This document shows positions 1 through 9,000 of a DNA stretch of 21,654 nucleotides, piece after piece. The DNA lies in NCBI GenBank assembly GCA_031409655.1, contig JANNXQ010000028.1:1-21654 (forward strand). Reading direction: 5' to 3'. Origin of the DNA: Chthoniobacteraceae bacterium. GTDB lineage: Bacteria; Verrucomicrobiota; Verrucomicrobiia; Chthoniobacterales; Chthoniobacteraceae. The first letter of the stretch is position 1. Every line of letters begins with the position of its first letter. The position numbers are program-made.

Positions 1-3000
1 CGGCGAAGAAGGGCGAGCGGAGCGCGCGGCGCAGGAGTTTCACAGCCAATTCCCGATGATGAGATACGGGGCCCAGAGGCACGGGTGACGGTAGCGCGGA
101 TTGGCCAGCAGCTTGCGTTGCGCGCCGCGCAGGGCCTGCGCCTTGGTCAGCTCCGGATCGGTGTGCAGCGCGGTGTAGAAGTCGTTGATGAGCTGCGTGG
201 AAGCCTCGTCACTGACAAACCAGAGCGTCGCGAAAGCGGCGCGCGCGCCCGCCTTCACGGCCACGCCCGCGAGGCCCAGCGCGGCGCGGTCGTCGCCGGC
301 CGCGGTCTGGCAGGCGCTGAGGGTGAGCAGCTCGACGGGCTGCTCGCGGAGTTGGCTCGGGCGGATCATCTGCTCGAGCTTGTCGAGCGAGAGCTTGCCA
401 TCGAAGGTGAGCACGAAGGACTTCTTCGCATCGCTGCTGAATTCGCCGTGGGAGGCGATATGCACCACGGAGAATTGCTGCTCTTTGAACTCCTTCGCCA
501 CGCTCTCGGTGAGGAACGTGCCGTTGAGCAGTTTGCTCCCTCCGTAGAGCGTATTGAGATCGCCGACTTCCTTCGCGACGAAAGGCAGCGCCGGAAAGCT
601 TTCGCCGTCCCGCTCCACGGCCTCGGAGAGTCCGCTGACCATCATCGCGATGCTCACGCGTTTGATTGCCTTTGGCTCCATGAGGCTGAGCCCGGGAGTG
701 ACGGCGATGGCATATTTTTCGACGAGAAACTTCTGGCCATCGTGGAGCGCGGCCATCGGGATGGTGCGCAGCGCGCCATCGGGCACGAAGACGAGCGTGT
801 CGATCTTCCCGCGGGCGAGCCGCGGCTCGAGGGGGCGGATGAGCCAGTCGTAGAGCTGCCAGGCTTCGGCAAGGAATTCGTTCGTCGTGCGGGTCTCGAG
901 ATGGGTGCGGAAGGCCCGGACGGTGTTGGTCAGGACGGCCGCAGTCACCGGCGCTTTCACCCGCTCGAGTCCGGCCGCGGTGCTGATGATGATCTCGGTG
1001 CGATCCGGCAGCGGCACGAGATAGAGCACCGCGGCACCTTTGGAGATTTCCTTCACGGTCGCCTCGACGGTCTTCTTTTTCGATTGCAGGAGATGCACAC
1101 AGTCGTCCTGAAAGTAGTCTTCGAGTTCCACCGCCTTGAGCAGCTCGCAGGTGTCCTGCGCTTCCCGGATGCACTGCACGACGGCCTCGGCATTGCCCAG
1201 CCCATCGGCGCGCTGGAGGAGCAGGTCCGCGAGTTCGAGGAAGACGTCGCCCACGGTTTCGCGGAAAGAGGTGCGGGCATTCGGATTCCCGAACCGGGCC
1301 GAGAGATCGGTGCGGATGCGCTCGATGTTCCCGATGGCCCGCCGGTAAGCCGCGATGGCTTCGTCGCGCCGGCCTTGCGCGCGGTCGATCCGGGCGGTCT
1401 GCCACTCCCAGCGATACAAGGCGTCGGGCGATTGCACCTTCTGTGCGAGGAAGGCCGCGCGACGCGTGAGGCGCAGCGCGTCCGCCCATTTTTTCTCCTG
1501 TTCGTAGAGATGCCCGGAGTAACCCAGCGCATAGGAAAGCGCGCGATCGTCGCCGAGCGCGGTCGCCGTGACGGCCGCTTTCTCATACGCGCGCAGGGCG
1601 TCGGCGCGCAGCCGATTGTCATGCGCCGGGGCGCGCTCGAAGAGCAGTTCCCAGTTCTTGCCCGCGCGCATCAGCGAGAAGGCCTTGTCGTGGGAATCGG
1701 GCAGCGCGAGCGCGGCGGCGAGGCCCGCGCGGTTCAAGTCGGCCGCCACCGCGAACTGCTCGCCGAGAACGGCGGTGCGGGCGGCGTTGATCGAGGCCTT
1801 CGTCGCGAGCGAGCCGTGGCCAGCCGCCTTGGCCAGCGATGCCGCCTCGCGATACGCATCCAGCGCCATGGCGAATTTCTCCTGCGCGCTCCGCAAGTTC
1901 CCGAGATCGTTCAGCACCGCCGCCACGGTCTCCTTTTCCCCAGCGGCACGCGCCACCTTGAGCGCTTCCTCCAGCGTCGGCTCCGCAGCGGCGGCGACAT
2001 GGGAAAATATCTGCAGACTCCCCAAGCGGGAGAGAGCCGCGGCCAGCCGGGCGCGGTCGCCCAGAGCCCGCGCTTCCTCGACGGCGTCGGTGGCCGCCTC
2101 GATCGCGCGGCGCTGTTCCCCGAGCGCCGCGTAGGCGCTCGCGAGATCGAGCTGGGTGTCGATCACCGCCGCCGCAGCGCTGTTTCGCTGATAGAGCACG
2201 AGCGCCGCTTGGTGCTCCGCGATCGCCTCCTCGAAGGCACCGCGTTCCGCAGCCTTCTCCGCCTTCATCCGCCGCTCGGAAGCACGTTCCTCCCAACCAG
2301 CGGAGGCCGTCGCAGAACCGACCCAGAGGGCCAGGAACGCGAGGACCAGCGGCCGCCACTTCATCGCCTGCTGAACGGTGCCAGTTTGTTGCATTTTGTC
2401 CTCAGGATGCGTTCGTCACGCGCGCCAGCAGTTCGGAGCCGGTCATCCGGAAAGCCGCCTCGTGCGGACAGGAATAAACACAGCGCGGCAGCGGAGAGGA
2501 GCGCGTTCCGGCAGAATCGCAGAGGTCGCAGGTGGCGGCCTTCGGTTGCGCGATGCGCAGGCTGTGCGTGTGGCCCGCCGCCTTCGGTAGTTCGAGGGGC
2601 CGATGTTCATCCGGCGTCATGAAAATGCTGCCGTAAGGGCAATTCGTTGCGCACAAGCCGCAGCCGATGCAGTGATCTTCGATGACGATCTGCTGATGCC
2701 GGCCGCGATGGATGGAGTCCACCGGGCAGCCAGTCATGCAGTGCGGCGTCTCGCAGGAGCGGCAGGAAGTGGCGACGACGAAATTCCCGAAACGCGGCCC
2801 ATCGCGGAGCAGGCGGGTGATCGGCACGCCGTGCGATTCGACGCCGTGCTGCTGCACGCAGCCCTTGGTGCATTCGTCGCACCGCGTGCAGAGATCCAGG
2901 TCGAGCACGAGGACGCTCCGGGCCTCGTAGAGTCCCTGCTCCACGTACTGATTCATGAAGGGGTTCAGGTCGCGGGCGCTCCGCAGCCGCTCGAGGGAGG

Positions 3001-6000: not shown

Positions 6001-9000
6001 CCGGAGCAGGAGTTCGCGATCCTTGAAAGTGCCGGGCTCACTCTCGTCTCCATTCACCACGATGAAGGCCCGGTCGTCGGCCTGACGGCCGCGCGCCGTG
6101 CGCACCGCATCGCGCACATCGCGCCATTTCTGGATCGCCGGGATACCCGCGCCGCCCATGCCGCGGAGATCGGCCTGCTTGAGTTCCTCCAGCAAGCCGT
6201 CCGACCAGCCGCCGAGGTGCGCGCCCTTGGCCCAATCGTCGTCGAGCTGCCAGCAGCGCACGGCCTGCGCAACCGCGGCATCCATGGCGACTTCCACCCG
6301 CATCTGCCGGATCGCCCCAAACCGGAACTGTTCCGTGTTCTCGCGGCGCCAATCCGACCGCTCCGCCAGCAACTCCATCGCCGCCGCCAACGAGGCGTCG
6401 CGCACGGCGACCGCGTTTCGGACCGCCGCATAATCCGACGGACCTTCATAAGTCTCGACCATCCAAGCCGCCATCGTCGGCGCCAGATCCCCATCCCGAT
6501 CCGCCGGCGGGAGCAGACCCTGAAGACAACCCGCGGCCACCCCATCCAACTCGCCAAACGACCGCCCGAGGTAATAGTGGTCGTGCTCCAAACCTTTGAC
6601 CGAAAAACAAGCTGCCGGCGCCCGGTCACAGCGGCCCTGGCAAGACACGCTCTCGACCGCGACTTCGTCCCCTTCCAGAGACCCGGCCCGCGCGCGAAGC
6701 TCCGCCGAACCCGCCATGGAGCACGCCATATCCCGGCAAATCCGCAGGACGATCCGCCGCGCTGGCGACAAACGAAAATGCGGAAAGAAACTCGCCACTT
6801 CCTGAATGCGGTAGAGGGGCACACCCGATTCCTGCGCATACCGCTGCAAGGCGCTGCGCTCAAGATGCCCATACTCCTCCTGAATCCGCTGCAAAGTGGG
6901 GACGAGAACCGAACGGTAGAAATTTTCCTTCGTTGCGCTCATCTTCACATAAAGCCACGCGGGCGGGAACGGGGGTCAGGAATGCCAGTGCGCACAGGGC
7001 GCATGGAAATGCCCCAGCCTTCTGACGTCAAACGCATTTCGGGGATCCAAACGAATGACGAACCGCCATCCGTCCGTGGATGGGCGCACTTGGACTTCTC
7101 CAGATCATGCGCCGAACGGCCGTCCTGGCGAATAAACCGCCCCCCGCCCCATCGCAAGACCCTCGCAAAAAGGCCGAACAAACACTTGCAAAGGCATCTC
7201 CCCTCCCCATACTGCGCGGCTCCTAAAAACTGATATGACTGACACCACGGAAATCCAGGCACTCCGCATCCACGAAAAAGACACGGGAAGTGCCGACGTG
7301 CAAATCGCCCTCCTGACTGCGCGAATCAACCACCTGACGGAGCACTTGAAAGGTCATGTGAAGGATCACTCCTCACGGCGCGGCCTGCTGATGCTCGTCG
7401 CCCGGCGGCGCAAGATGCTCGATTATCTCAAGCGCACCGCGAGCGATCGCTACAAGAACGTGCTCGAGAAATTGAGTCTGCGGAAATAGCGACTCTTCGA
7501 TTTTGAAAACGGTGCGCCCGCGATCTTCTCGCGGGCGAACTGTTTCAGCCCCCAACGAAAAACTTTCCCGCAGCGCTTTGGCCCTTCGCCTGAGCGGTGC
7601 GTCAACCACAGGAAAAACAACCAGCCGGCACTCCCTTTTTCCCCTCCGGGCCTAGTCTTAGCCCCGGGCTTTCACGGCCTCCCTCTTCTTCTCCTTCTTC
7701 ATCTCCTCCTCCTTCTTCCGACAATCCACCGGAAGCAGAAGGAGATGAAGTAGGAGAAGAAGAAGATTTGAGAAAGTCCCGGGCTACGAGCTAGCCGTCC
7801 GTTCGGAAAATGTGGGTGCCAGGCGCAAAACAAAACAAGCACACCCATGATCCATAATGTCACCGCCCACGTCGGGCCCAATCCCATCACCATCGAAACC
7901 GGCAAGCTCGCGAATCTCGCGGACGGCGCCGTCACCGTCCGCAGCGGCGAGACCATCATGTTCGTCTCCGCCGTCTCCGCAACCAGCATCAAGGAAGGCC
8001 AGGACTGGTTCCCGCTTTCCGTCGAATATCGCGAAAAAGCCGCCGCGGTCGGCAAGTTCCCCGGCGGCTACTTCAAGCGCGAAGGCCGGCCCACCGAAAA
8101 GGAAGTCCTCACCTGCCGCATGACGGATCGCCCGCTGCGTCCGCTCTTCCCGAAAGGCTACCTCTACGACACCCAGATCATCGGCGTCCTGCTCAGCGCG
8201 GATGGCGAGCATGATCCCGACATTCTGATGATGAACGGCGCGAGCGCCGCCCTCATGGTCAGCGATATTCCCTTTGCCGGCCCCGTGGCCGCCGTCCGCG
8301 TCGGACGCGTGAATGGCCAGTTCGTCGTGAATCCCGGCCATAGCCAGCGCGAGTCGAGCGATCTCGACCTCGTCTATGTCGGAACGAAGGACGACGTCAT
8401 CATGATCGAAGGCGCTGCCGACGAGTTGCCTGAGGAAGATTTCGTGAACGCGTTGAAATTCGCGCATGCGGAAGCCAGCAAGCTCATCGCCGCGCAGATC
8501 GAACTCGCCGCGAAAGCCGGCAAGGTGAAGCGCGAAGTCCCGCTCTTTACGGTGCGCGAAGAACTCATGGAAGTCGCCTATTCTGTCGCTGGTGATCGCA
8601 TCGAGGGAGCCATCTACAACCCGACCAAGGTCGCCCGCTCCAAAGCGATCGGCGCGCTCAAGGAAGAAGTCACCGCCGCGATCGTGGCGAAGTTCCCCGA
8701 AGCCTCGAAGTTCGAAGTCAGCCAGGCCTTTGACTATCTCCAGAAGAAGGCCTTCCGCATCAGCATCCTCGACAAGCAAGTGCGCGCCGACGGTCGCGGA
8801 CCCGATGCCATCCGCCCGCTGAGCGCCGAAGTCGGCATGCTCCCGCGTTCACATGGCAGCGCCATCTTCAATCGCGGCGAAACGCAAGCCGTGGCGCTCG
8901 CCACCCTCGCTCCCGCCGAGGAAGCTCAGGATCTCGACGGCTACACTGGCGGCGAGACTACCAAACGCTTCATCCTGCACTACAACTTCCCGCCTTTCTC

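Follow-up and report, generated by a model that had tools for sequence, protein, structure and literature searches.

Electron transfer across the cell envelope has been proposed for the ptd/PCC4 family, which was named in 2017 and 2024. In the ptdABCDEFG operon (Elbon, Stewart, Glass; bioRxiv 10.1101/2023.11.21.568154), as far as the accessible part of that report describes it, the cNMP protein PtdE contains 4Fe-4S clusters and adjoins the tetrahaem PtdD, the membrane protein PtdF, and the decahaem PtdG. PCC4 subgroup II (He, Barco, Emerson, Roden 2017, PMC5566968) is presented in its accessible text as a tetrahaem, a decahaem, a five-helix inner-membrane protein, and a porin, with an Fe-S gene upstream. 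Its inner-membrane protein carries SGXXG and two WX3HX13H motifs, a di-haem signature. The system was found in Fe(II) oxidisers and modelled as inward flow from donor to quinone, and the word “cyclic” does not occur in that same accessible text.

Here we analyzed a window of 21,654 nucleotides, i.e., contig JANNXQ010000028.1 of a Chthoniobacteraceae bacterium (GCA_031409655.1), in which a gene pair probably encodes a head that oxidises NAD(P)H in the cytoplasm and feeds a ptd/PCC4-type trans-envelope electron chain.

Gene pair and cofactor sites

A survey of the genome had reported a 689-aa NuoE-NuoF fusion followed by an 826-aa Fe-S/cNMP protein, and ORF calling and Pfam bore out both reading frames and their domains:

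4873..6942, (-): NuoE-NuoF fusion flavoprotein gene, 689 aa from ATG 6942 (ORF, Pfam)
2402..4882, (-): Fe-S/cNMP protein gene, 826 aa (ORF, Pfam, alignment, AF2)
40..2394, (-): TPR-CHAT protein gene, co-directional, 7 nt downstream of the 826-aa gene (Pfam)

With a GTG start, the first frame is called at 4873-6948(-), 691 aa. The pair overlaps by 10 nt, with GGAGG preceding the second start. The TPR-CHAT gene is a local passenger and not a conserved part, as it is matched in 1 of 80 related loci only (the 93%-identical L001). Sugar-acid catabolic genes also lie inside the window (Pfam), and the host genome encodes haem-copper oxidases.

The flavoprotein comprises 2Fe-2S_thioredx (10-114), Complex1_51K (257-434), SLBB, and NADH_4Fe-4S (584-672) domains (Pfam), with an N1a-type [2Fe-2S] site (C69/74/101/105), an FMN site, and an N3-type [4Fe-4S] site (C595/598/601/646) beyond which extra C-terminal clusters are absent. 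Respiratory complex I was rejected as an identity: the NCBIfam NuoF score of 285 bits falls under the cut-off of 558.65, the N5 cluster is absent, and the separate NuoEF copy on contig C293 is 32% identical, which upholds the earlier distinction between the pair and complex I. The survey's label of “NADH” oxidoreductase fared less well, given the nucleotide pocket:

5713..5775, (-): nucleotide-specificity segment of NuoF, Q390, L407, K410 (structure-anchored alignment, family counts)

These residues occupy the positions of E259, K276, and L279 in R. capsulatus FdsB (ungapped offset to 6tg9_B and 7awt_F), where the host's own complex I has E, K, and Y. The triad holds across the NuoEF family (Q in 62/63, M or L in 63/63, K in 60/63). 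According to the accessible part of the FdsB work, mutating these three positions gave the enzyme NADP activity, the E259Q variant being still NAD+-preferring (kcat/KM 451 vs 79) and the changes non-additive. Since this NuoF differs from FdsB at all three NADP-switch positions, its pocket pattern appears NADP-permissive, and NADPH is more likely than NADH to be the substrate.

The 826-aa protein matches Fer2_4 (42-156), a dicluster, two cNMP_binding stretches (E 1e-34), and a C-terminal Fer4 (Pfam), and its AF2 model reached a pLDDT of 86.5 and a pTM of 0.82. One [2Fe-2S] and two [4Fe-4S] clusters are followed by two cNMP domains and four further [4Fe-4S] clusters:

4454..4564, (-): [2Fe-2S], N1b-type, ligands C107, C118, C121, C143 (each 71/71 homologues)
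3989..4150, (-): two [4Fe-4S], C245-C255 and C288-C298 (each Cys 71/71)
3503..3880, (-): cNMP domain 1, canonical phosphate-binding cassette G415, E416, R425, A427 (alignment)
2978..3475, (-): cNMP domain 2, cassette G548, E549 ... R591, A593 (alignment, AF2)
2417..2950, (-): four-cluster polyferredoxin, HydN/NrfC/DmsB type, 16 Cys (profile match, alignment)

Across the 71 aligned homologues, the cysteines of the [2Fe-2S] (4/4) and the dicluster (8/8) are invariant and the 16 of the polyferredoxin are kept in 69-71, while the NuoG His-Cys3 N5 cluster is absent before the [4Fe-4S] pair, its pattern appearing in 3 of 80 broad homologues. [FeFe]-hydrogenase and Mo-W formate dehydrogenase were rejected as identities: searches of Pfam, NCBIfam, and solved structures matched no H-cluster or molybdopterin family in this protein, only N-terminal Fe-S stretches, in agreement with the survey's claim that it has no such catalytic domain.

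A relationship missed by the survey concerns the C-terminal half, which appears from sequence to belong to the ptd/PCC4 PtdE family. Two loci, L107 and L108, match the ptd description in gene content and haem numbers (5/4/10), and we took them as ptd references by this description and not by accession. Their PtdE-type proteins align with the 826-aa protein at 27-28% identity over 543-555 columns (E<=6e-33), and their D, F, and G proteins match contig C244 of the host genome. The protein combines an N-terminal relay of NuoG/FDH-alpha type with a cNMP2-polyferredoxin resembling PtdE.

An electron-bifurcating Bfu (HydABC-type) enzyme, with the cytochrome chain as third substrate, is highly improbable. 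The best solved-structure matches do include HydA/HydB of bifurcating enzymes and, in the accessible text of Schut et al. 2022 (PMC9304861), Bfu enzymes exchange their third module while BfuB clusters B2-B5 define the family. The pair described here resembles them in its NuoEF/NuoG-like core and substituted third module but lacks these defining clusters: the NuoEF chain stops 20-59 residues past the last N3 ligand in 62/63 homologues, without CxxCxxCxxxC, and no conserved four-Cys set lies between NuoE and the FMN domain.

Multihaem partners and alternative heads

Homologues of all neighborhood partners are present in the host genome on contigs other than the window, with three on C244:

C244:1653-2783: tetrahaem, 3 CxxCH plus 1 Cx4CH
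C244:3033-4007: five-helix di-haem-b membrane protein (homologue in loci)
C244:4017-5528: membrane-anchored periplasmic decahaem, 10 CxxCH

The first had been described as a trihaem; its fourth site, Cx4CH, is found in 25/25 members longer than 330 aa and makes it a tetrahaem. The membrane protein shares two WX3HX13H motifs and SGxxG with all 32 aligned sequences, itself included. Genes of the outer module occur in two copies, 84-90% alike. None of these partners shares a contig with the gene pair in the bin (306 contigs, 94.9% complete, 5.26% contamination), and hence we infer their link to the gene pair in this host.

Evidence for this link comes from relatives. The full-length 826-aa form was found in 12/201 order genomes, and the cNMP-polyferredoxin core and a large decahaem-LVIVD protein occur in an identical set of 31/201, with the core counted at E<=1.2e-41 (31/33 matches), a threshold chosen after the search. 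The 201 genomes include kin and are not independent, and such co-occurrence counts are therefore overstated. Among 80 loci, 38 of them >=20 kb, NuoEF was the partner in 75, the remaining 5 being cut by a contig start. The full-length and NuoEF counts are of the same kind as those given by the earlier survey (4 of 41 order genomes; partner in 66 of 80 loci). The decahaem was detected in 39 loci (28 of the >=20 kb subset), the membrane protein in 38 (28), the tetrahaem in 37 (27), the large decahaem in 27 (21), a barrel in 19 (16), and an HbpS-like protein in 20 (17). A cytochrome-chain partner gene lay within 10 kb in 29/38 long loci, and none within this distance in the other 9. The proposed electron conduit with cNMP domains tied to multihaem cytochromes thus stands on firmer ground than first claimed.

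Complex prediction for residues 325-826 with the di-haem membrane protein scored 0.59 against 0.00 for the best of 3 controls, with 100% contact agreement between runs and a partner pLDDT >=76. The mark used is reached by 116/157 solved and 2/215 mismatched pairs, of which 18 solved and both mismatched pairs score <=0.60. This tentatively suggests that the cNMP2-polyferredoxin may dock on the membrane protein, and we propose that the polyferredoxin would form the docking end for the C244 copy. Alternatively, the pair could be a stand-alone cNMP-regulated soluble diaphorase (NAD(P)H:ferredoxin/acceptor oxidoreductase) with merely co-inherited cytochromes, in keeping with the absence of an adjacent cytochrome gene within the window, with the 9 long loci above, and with the many partners docked by HydN-type polyferredoxins. 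We consider this quite improbable given the identical set of 31 genomes, the tentative complex prediction, and the gene order of most stand-alone and ptd loci, where the core immediately precedes the membrane protein and decahaem.

Heads vary or are missing, and the element that stays constant in the system is the cNMP-polyferredoxin. NuoEF of this type was found in 11/49 chosen genomes, in each case as the gene immediately preceding the fused one; an FNR-[2Fe-2S] PtdC-type head (E<=2e-62) was found in 8/50, and in 0 of the 12 with the fused form. The two head types are mutually exclusive. Four queries found no flavin head in 19/31 system genomes, where the core stands alone, and the flavin head is therefore not an invariant part. 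In Sphingobium herbicidovorans MH all seven homologues are clustered and a TrxR-type flavin domain replaces the NuoG relay, while P0195 (1483 aa), one of 24 scanned representatives, unites NuoE, NuoF, the relay, the cNMP domains, and the polyferredoxin in a single polypeptide.

Proposed direction of flow and cyclic-nucleotide control

Building on directly observed domains, ligand residues, gene linkage, and exclusive head types, we infer binding partners, NADPH use, cNMP gating, flow direction, and acceptor as follows. NADPH, or either nucleotide, would reduce the FMN of the NuoEF protein, and electrons would pass through N3, the [2Fe-2S], and two [4Fe-4S] to the four [4Fe-4S] of the polyferredoxin, then to the di-haem-b membrane protein, decahaem, and tetrahaem of C244. 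These would feed an outer module of decahaem/LVIVD-propeller, 18-strand barrel, and secreted HbpS/GlcG-type protein, the final acceptor most likely being a small oxidant (metal chelate, quinone, or haem-related) at the periplasm or surface via the barrel. Such a chain would need no quinone or proton pump, akin to a NOX/ferric-reductase chain. Roughly 24 c-haems and eight Fe-S clusters would make up the whole system.

Reverse flow, with Fe(II), reduced humics, or a similar external donor feeding electrons inward to quinone or NAD(P)+, seems rather unlikely. Haems of c and b type normally have higher potentials than NAD(P)+, a pumping or bifurcating module is absent, the host's haem-copper oxidases and sugar-acid genes point the other way, and an NADP-type head fits a reductant donor. 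Conversely, this direction is the one modelled for PCC4 in the accessible text of PMC5566968, the membrane protein could be quinone-active, and the 19 head-less forms are compatible with quinone exchange. For the NuoEF-headed form, the natural NADP-permissive pocket points to an outward flow of reducing power, not Fe(II) oxidation.

Located between the Fe-S blocks, the cNMP domains would act as an allosteric flux switch upon binding a cyclic nucleotide, most likely cAMP. Both sites have the Gly-Glu...Arg-x-Ala cassette in a fold matching PKA/PKG regulatory domains. In domain 1, G, E, and R are each conserved in 71/71 homologues (Arg also in 50/57 distant ones). The survey's doubt about the second motif is dispelled by the conservation of G548 (71/71), E549 (70/71), and R591 (69/71), the pocket being only split by a ~33-residue two-helix insert. 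The residue after the cassette Arg varies (S/A/T/N), so that the nucleotide is not readable from it. Cyclases occur in 19/80 loci, where ~0.90 Mb contains 25 ORFs of this kind compared with 13 in 6.85 Mb of host genome. Against a general role, a CHASE2 cyclase orthologue is present in only 6/31 system genomes (2/12 with the NuoEF-type head) vs 2/170 without the system. The Lys motif, which we take to be adenine-type, was matched in 9/15 CHASE2 cyclases and in the host's copy. Our literature search found no account of a cyclic nucleotide directly gating an Fe-S wire.

The constant cNMP-polyferredoxin, the variable heads, the nearby HbpS-like and cyclase genes, and FHA domains on 3/24 scanned homologues and on the Sphingobium decahaem would also suit a redox-sensing node, in which the wire reports envelope redox state, cNMP (and, in relatives, FHA) domains integrate signals, and the flavin head resets the clusters. 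We regard this as unlikely: cNMP and FHA domains are inputs, no DNA-binding, kinase, or cyclase output domain is fused in the 24 scanned homologues, one NUDIX fusion excepted, and so many haems and clusters are costly for sensing alone.

Meaning and comparison with known systems

Across lineages, the cNMP-polyferredoxin has been combined with three unrelated NAD(P)H-oxidising heads, and the NuoEF variant described here narrows both function and direction of ptd/PCC4. A fuller picture, which we offer only as a tentative possibility, is that of a complex-I/formate-dehydrogenase diaphorase module retuned for NADPH, with an eight-cluster relay switched directly by cAMP and a quinone-independent envelope haem chain, a second-messenger-gated bacterial counterpart of NADPH oxidases/ferric reductases with interchangeable NuoEF/FNR/TrxR heads among aerobic PVC bacteria and Acidobacteria from soil and fresh water. 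Cofactor choice and cNMP gating are approachable without the membrane parts, as the head consists of two soluble proteins of well-studied fold, S. herbicidovorans MH is a cultured aerobe holding a homologous cluster, and the natural Q/L/K triad may guide NADPH engineering of NuoF-type enzymes.

A similar diaphorase module occurs in Methylorubrum extorquens W-formate dehydrogenase 1 (7vw6/7e5z; 7e5z_B is the best solved match of the fused NuoEF, E 2e-70), complex I NuoEFG, and HoxFU. Residues 102-304 of the 826-aa protein align with the N-terminus of FDH alpha, in which the alignment likewise shows no N5 motif. In contrast to these enzymes, the cNMP2-polyferredoxin stands where they carry their catalytic W/Mo, H-cluster, or quinone module, and the pocket is apparently NADP-type.

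The outer-membrane barrel was modelled at low confidence (mean pLDDT 54.6) from a 14-row alignment of relatives' copies; the model shows 18 strands and is most similar to AlgE (E 3e-15). MtrB-type sleeves are wider by strand count, and the model tentatively speaks against a wide barrel enclosing a decahaem as in MtrAB-type conduits. A multihaem chain with an outer-membrane barrel is shared with MtrCAB-type conduits and with the Verrucomicrobia porin-MHC clusters reported in PMC5615132, PMC6344600, and bioRxiv 10.64898/2026.05.27.727921, the first of these papers describing, in its accessible text, >=20-strand porins and octahaem partners; judging from these descriptions, the host system is set apart by its modelled 18-strand barrel and NAD(P)H input. 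The term “cyclic nucleotide” is absent from the accessible main texts of all three.

Closest are ptd and PCC4, with which the host shares the cNMP Fe-S protein, the SGXXG/WX3HX13H membrane protein, and the tetrahaem and decahaem. Unlike in ptd, the PtdE-like part is fused to a NuoG-type relay fed by NuoEF, and the outer module consists of a decahaem-LVIVD protein, a different barrel (hhalign probability of 0.1 against PtdB, from shallow alignments), and an HbpS-like protein. The pentahaem PtdA, the porin PtdB, and the FAD/NAD(P) oxidoreductase PtdC have no tblastn match in the 94.9%-complete host genome at E 1e-4, and the head comparison at E 1e-10 likewise found no PtdC in it, NuoEF taking its place. 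Compared to PCC4 subgroup II, the host has no pentahaem partner and a complex-I-like head. Overall, sequence comparison indicates that the host system is a ptd/PCC4-type core in which a complex-I-like head replaces the FNR-type PtdC.

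A two-gene module and its setting

The survey's finding had described a two-gene module, in which a NuoE-NuoF fusion (NuoEF) accompanies an Fe-S protein with two cyclic nucleotide (cNMP)-binding domains, and both ORFs and their domains were recovered as described and are conserved in homologues. The two ORFs overlap on the minus strand, and the Fe-S/cNMP ORF (hereafter the fused gene, a NuoG-type relay joined to a cNMP-polyferredoxin core) is followed by a tightly coupled TPR-CHAT gene, beyond which the contig breaks off and cuts away what lay downstream:

4873-6942, minus strand: NuoEF, 689 aa; NuoE, Nuo51-FMN, SLBB and N3 domains
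2402-4882, minus strand: Fe-S/cNMP protein, 826 aa; [2Fe-2S] at the N-terminus, dicluster, two cNMP domains and four-cluster ferredoxin
40-2394, minus strand: TPR-CHAT protein, 7 nt past the fused gene; signal-peptide-like start
7235-21517: housekeeping and catabolic genes, comprising rpsO, pnp, uxaE, a TPR protein and a PQQ-type propeller (domain scan), and, by eye, an aldo-keto reductase, a Zn alcohol dehydrogenase, an amidohydrolase, YraN, RNase HII, tadA and rplS

The source bin of this contig (C28) comprises 6.85 Mb in 306 contigs, and its nearest kin are labelled Verrucomicrobiota, chiefly Chthoniobacterales. A promoter and terminator scan gave no signal exceeding shuffled sequences, and sequence-word matches to public read runs included no RNA dataset; three DNA runs, all from one freshwater-sediment study, contained at least half of the query words, and the source may be among them.

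Alignment of 71 homologues of the Fe-S/cNMP protein shows all 12 N-terminal Cys ligands to be invariant and the 16 C-terminal ones to be kept in 69-71; no N5 His-Cys3 motif was found, and the part of M. extorquens FDH1 alpha that aligns likewise has none. The AlphaFold2 model is confident (pLDDT 86.5, pTM 0.82), and a structure search found no solved structure spanning the whole chain. Domain searches agreed with the survey that the protein carries no catalytic domain, and an identity as hydrogenase or formate dehydrogenase was rejected on this ground. The claimed separation from complex I likewise held, the copy on contig C293 being only 32% identical; with this separate copy and no N5, a complex I identity was rejected. 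We note that NuoE and NuoF of complex I also share one 704-aa frame in this genome (C293:8168-10282, minus strand), and that frames of 650-730 aa occur at the NuoF match in many relatives. The module could also be read as an electron-bifurcating enzyme of the HydABC-type family (Bfu), which is barely credible because NuoEF lacks clusters B2-B5 that define these enzymes; membership was accordingly rejected.

Multihaem partners

Gene neighbourhoods were compared in 80 of the 168 relatives found in genome contigs. NuoEF adjoins the fused gene in 75 of these loci, the others being cut by the contig start. Within 10 kb of the gene, 39 loci have a decahaem protein, 38 a membrane protein with five helices and 37 a tetrahaem protein; 27 have a ~1200-aa decahaem protein containing LVIVD repeats, 20 a secreted HbpS-like protein and 19 a Pfam-less protein. 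The CHAT gene, present in only one of the 80 loci, was rejected as a part of the system. In seven loci (L009, L015, L040, L052, L054, L059, L079) the cytochrome genes are preceded by a gene for a ~380-aa CysJ-like FAD/NAD-binding flavoprotein.

This genome encodes all partner types, on contigs C244, C203, C42, C100 and C195. The outer-module genes (large decahaem and HbpS-like) occur on these contigs in two near-copies with 84-90% DNA identity, broken at contig ends, which represent either paralogues or a strain mixture. No contig-end overlap joins C28 to any of the five contigs. The genome also has genes for cytochrome c assembly and for haem-copper oxidases. Of the 38 loci that span at least 20 kb, 29 have one or more of the listed partners within 10 kb. 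That the gene pair works as a stand-alone diaphorase is very unlikely. Among 201 genomes of the order, the core was matched in 33; the genomes of the 31 strong matches (E<=1.2e-41) coincide one for one with the 31 that encode the large decahaem, and the two weak ones are classical operons of the ptdABCDEFG type described in a preprint. The full-length fused gene was found in this genome only, among 301 genomes of the phylum sample.

The membrane protein has two WX3HX13H motifs whose four His are invariant (32/32). A predicted complex between residues 325-826 of the 826-aa protein and the C244 membrane protein scored 0.59, against 0.00 for the best control, with full agreement between runs and a partner pLDDT of at least 76; since this level is shared by 18 of 157 solved complexes and by both passing mismatches of 215, the prediction adds little alone. 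The Pfam-less protein, modelled at low confidence from a relative's copy, is a predicted 18-strand, AlgE-like barrel; its Atlas look-alike scores 0.95 and comes from a cluster of which 21% carries Alginate_exp. In searches of solved structures, neither the large decahaem nor the membrane-protein profile found a match, and matches were weak for the HbpS-like protein (EfgA/PduO-type domains) and the anchored decahaem (alternative complex III cytochromes).

Flavin head and its alternatives

The R. capsulatus FdsB residues E259, K276 and L279 align without gaps to Q390, L407 and K410 of NuoEF, and residue 183 of E. coli NuoF aligns to Q390, presuming that chain numbering equals residue numbering. 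Passages of PMC10671435 report that, in FdsB, a neutral or basic residue at 259, K276A or L279R each confers NADP activity absent in the wild type, that E259Q still prefers NAD+ about six-fold, and that the effects are non-additive; HoxF variants E341A/S342R are mentioned in a passage of PMC10127272. Among 63 NuoEF family members, 62 have Q at the first position, all 63 have M or L at the second and 60 have K at the third; complex I of this genome has E, K and Y. The triad points to NADPH or dual nucleotide use over plain NADH, and the survey's label of an NADH oxidoreductase was not borne out in its plain form. The NuoEF match in genome G475 (C297:989-3025) contains two TGA stops, possibly reflecting a broken or frameshifted copy.

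The fused form is present in 12 of the 31 system genomes. In 49 chosen genomes (32 with a core match, 11 of the order that lack one, and 6 drawn from the phylum at large), NuoEF of the module type was found in 11, each time as the gene directly before the fused one. An FNR-[2Fe-2S] protein consistent with PtdC as published (E<=2e-62) was detected in 8 of 50 genomes, always adjoining a stand-alone core and never in the same genome as the fused form; weaker matches (E 1e-53 to 1e-12) occurred in nine more, two of them with the fused form. The seven-gene set recurs in S. herbicidovorans MH, where the core carries a fused TrxR-type domain. A NuoG-type relay is carried by 66 of the 150 top representatives, and one chain unites NuoEF, relay and core. 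With the queries used, no NuoEF-, FNR-, TrxR- or NuoG-type partner was found in 19 of the 31 system genomes, which counts against a universal head.

Stand-alone cNMP-polyferredoxins, mostly of 560-770 aa, occur in these 19 of the 31 system genomes (G048, G300, G340, G314, G431, G470 and others; loci L082, L083, L090-L106), usually directly before the membrane protein and decahaem, and their first cassette is distinctive and conserved. In a quick-method tree of 93 rows (every other fused representative, i.e. 33 of 66, with 8 fused loci, 24 stand-alone representatives and 28 genome loci), the PtdC-linked group forms one side of a branch with support 100; the fused forms require four changes, at least two of them forced, on a midpoint root that gives no order of events.

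Sensor domains, proposed electron path and known systems

The first cNMP cassette is canonical, with G415, E416 and R425 each kept in 71 of 71 homologues and the Arg in 50 of 57 distant ones. The second had been doubted, its motif matching in 21 of 64 homologues; this doubt was not upheld, as its residues are kept (G548 in 71, E549 in 70, R591 in 69 and A593 in 68 of 71) around an insert of ~33 residues between Glu and Arg, modelled as two helices, that probably explains the low count. The residue after the cassette Arg is variable, so that sequence cannot tell cAMP from cGMP.

Of the 80 loci, 19 contain a nucleotide cyclase (25 such ORFs in ~0.90 Mb, relative to a baseline of 13 ORFs in 6.85 Mb from this genome alone). 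The commonest, a CHASE2 cyclase, is encoded by just 6 of the 31 genomes with the system and by 2 of 170 others, and is therefore enriched, not obligate. We consider it unlikely that the module is a signalling node. At the end of contig C301 (52046-58017) a CHASE2 cyclase gene follows one for a FecR-TPR-TonB-barrel protein, a pair that frequently flanks the module in relatives; a second FecR-barrel copy lies at C190:2794-6519. Fusions of FHA domains, either with the cNMP-polyferredoxin or with the decahaem, were also observed, as was one C-terminal NUDIX fusion (P0176, P0181, P0186, P0128; L081:22225-24024).

The likeliest mechanism, which we regard as reasonably probable, is an NADPH-fed Fe-S/haem chain to the barrel with flux switched by a cyclic nucleotide. 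Electrons would pass from NADPH through FMN, N3, [2Fe-2S] and two [4Fe-4S] clusters to the four [4Fe-4S] clusters, and then via two b haems, the anchored decahaem and the tetrahaem to the decahaem/propeller at the barrel, and flux would be toggled by cyclic nucleotide binding to the cNMP domains. Domains, cluster ligands, gene linkage and the mutual exclusion of head types are observations, from which cofactor, gating, direction and acceptor are inferred. Being modelled as narrow, the barrel would accommodate a small acceptor more readily than a plug of the Mtr type. Inward electron flow, the direction in which the porin-cytochrome cluster PCC4 was modelled, is rather improbable. The inner half of the system matches PCC4 subgroup II (He et al. 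2017) and ptdDEFG.

By their descriptions, ptdDEFG and PCC4 subgroup II are one family. Taking as ptd references the proteins of two loci assigned by description (L107, G346, 6785-18080; L108, G445, 6409-18185), we found homologues of D, E, F and G in this genome and none of A, B and C, and therefore regard the module as ptd/PCC4-like with a common inner module, not as a full member. Both loci are complete ptdABCDEFG-type operons with an FNR-type oxidoreductase and cytochromes with 5, 4 and 10 haems; the two genomes belong to the same order as this one and lack the large decahaem, indicating two different outer modules on one inner module. No paper on a NuoEF-fed cNMP/Fe-S protein was found in mostly open literature, the ptd and peat preprints being compared by main text. 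Modular heads, a natural NADP-type pocket and intact sensor pockets in a soluble two-protein unit make the family's questions directly testable. Taken together, the module is genuine and conserved, a NuoEF-headed variant of the named ptd/PCC4 kind with a predicted function.
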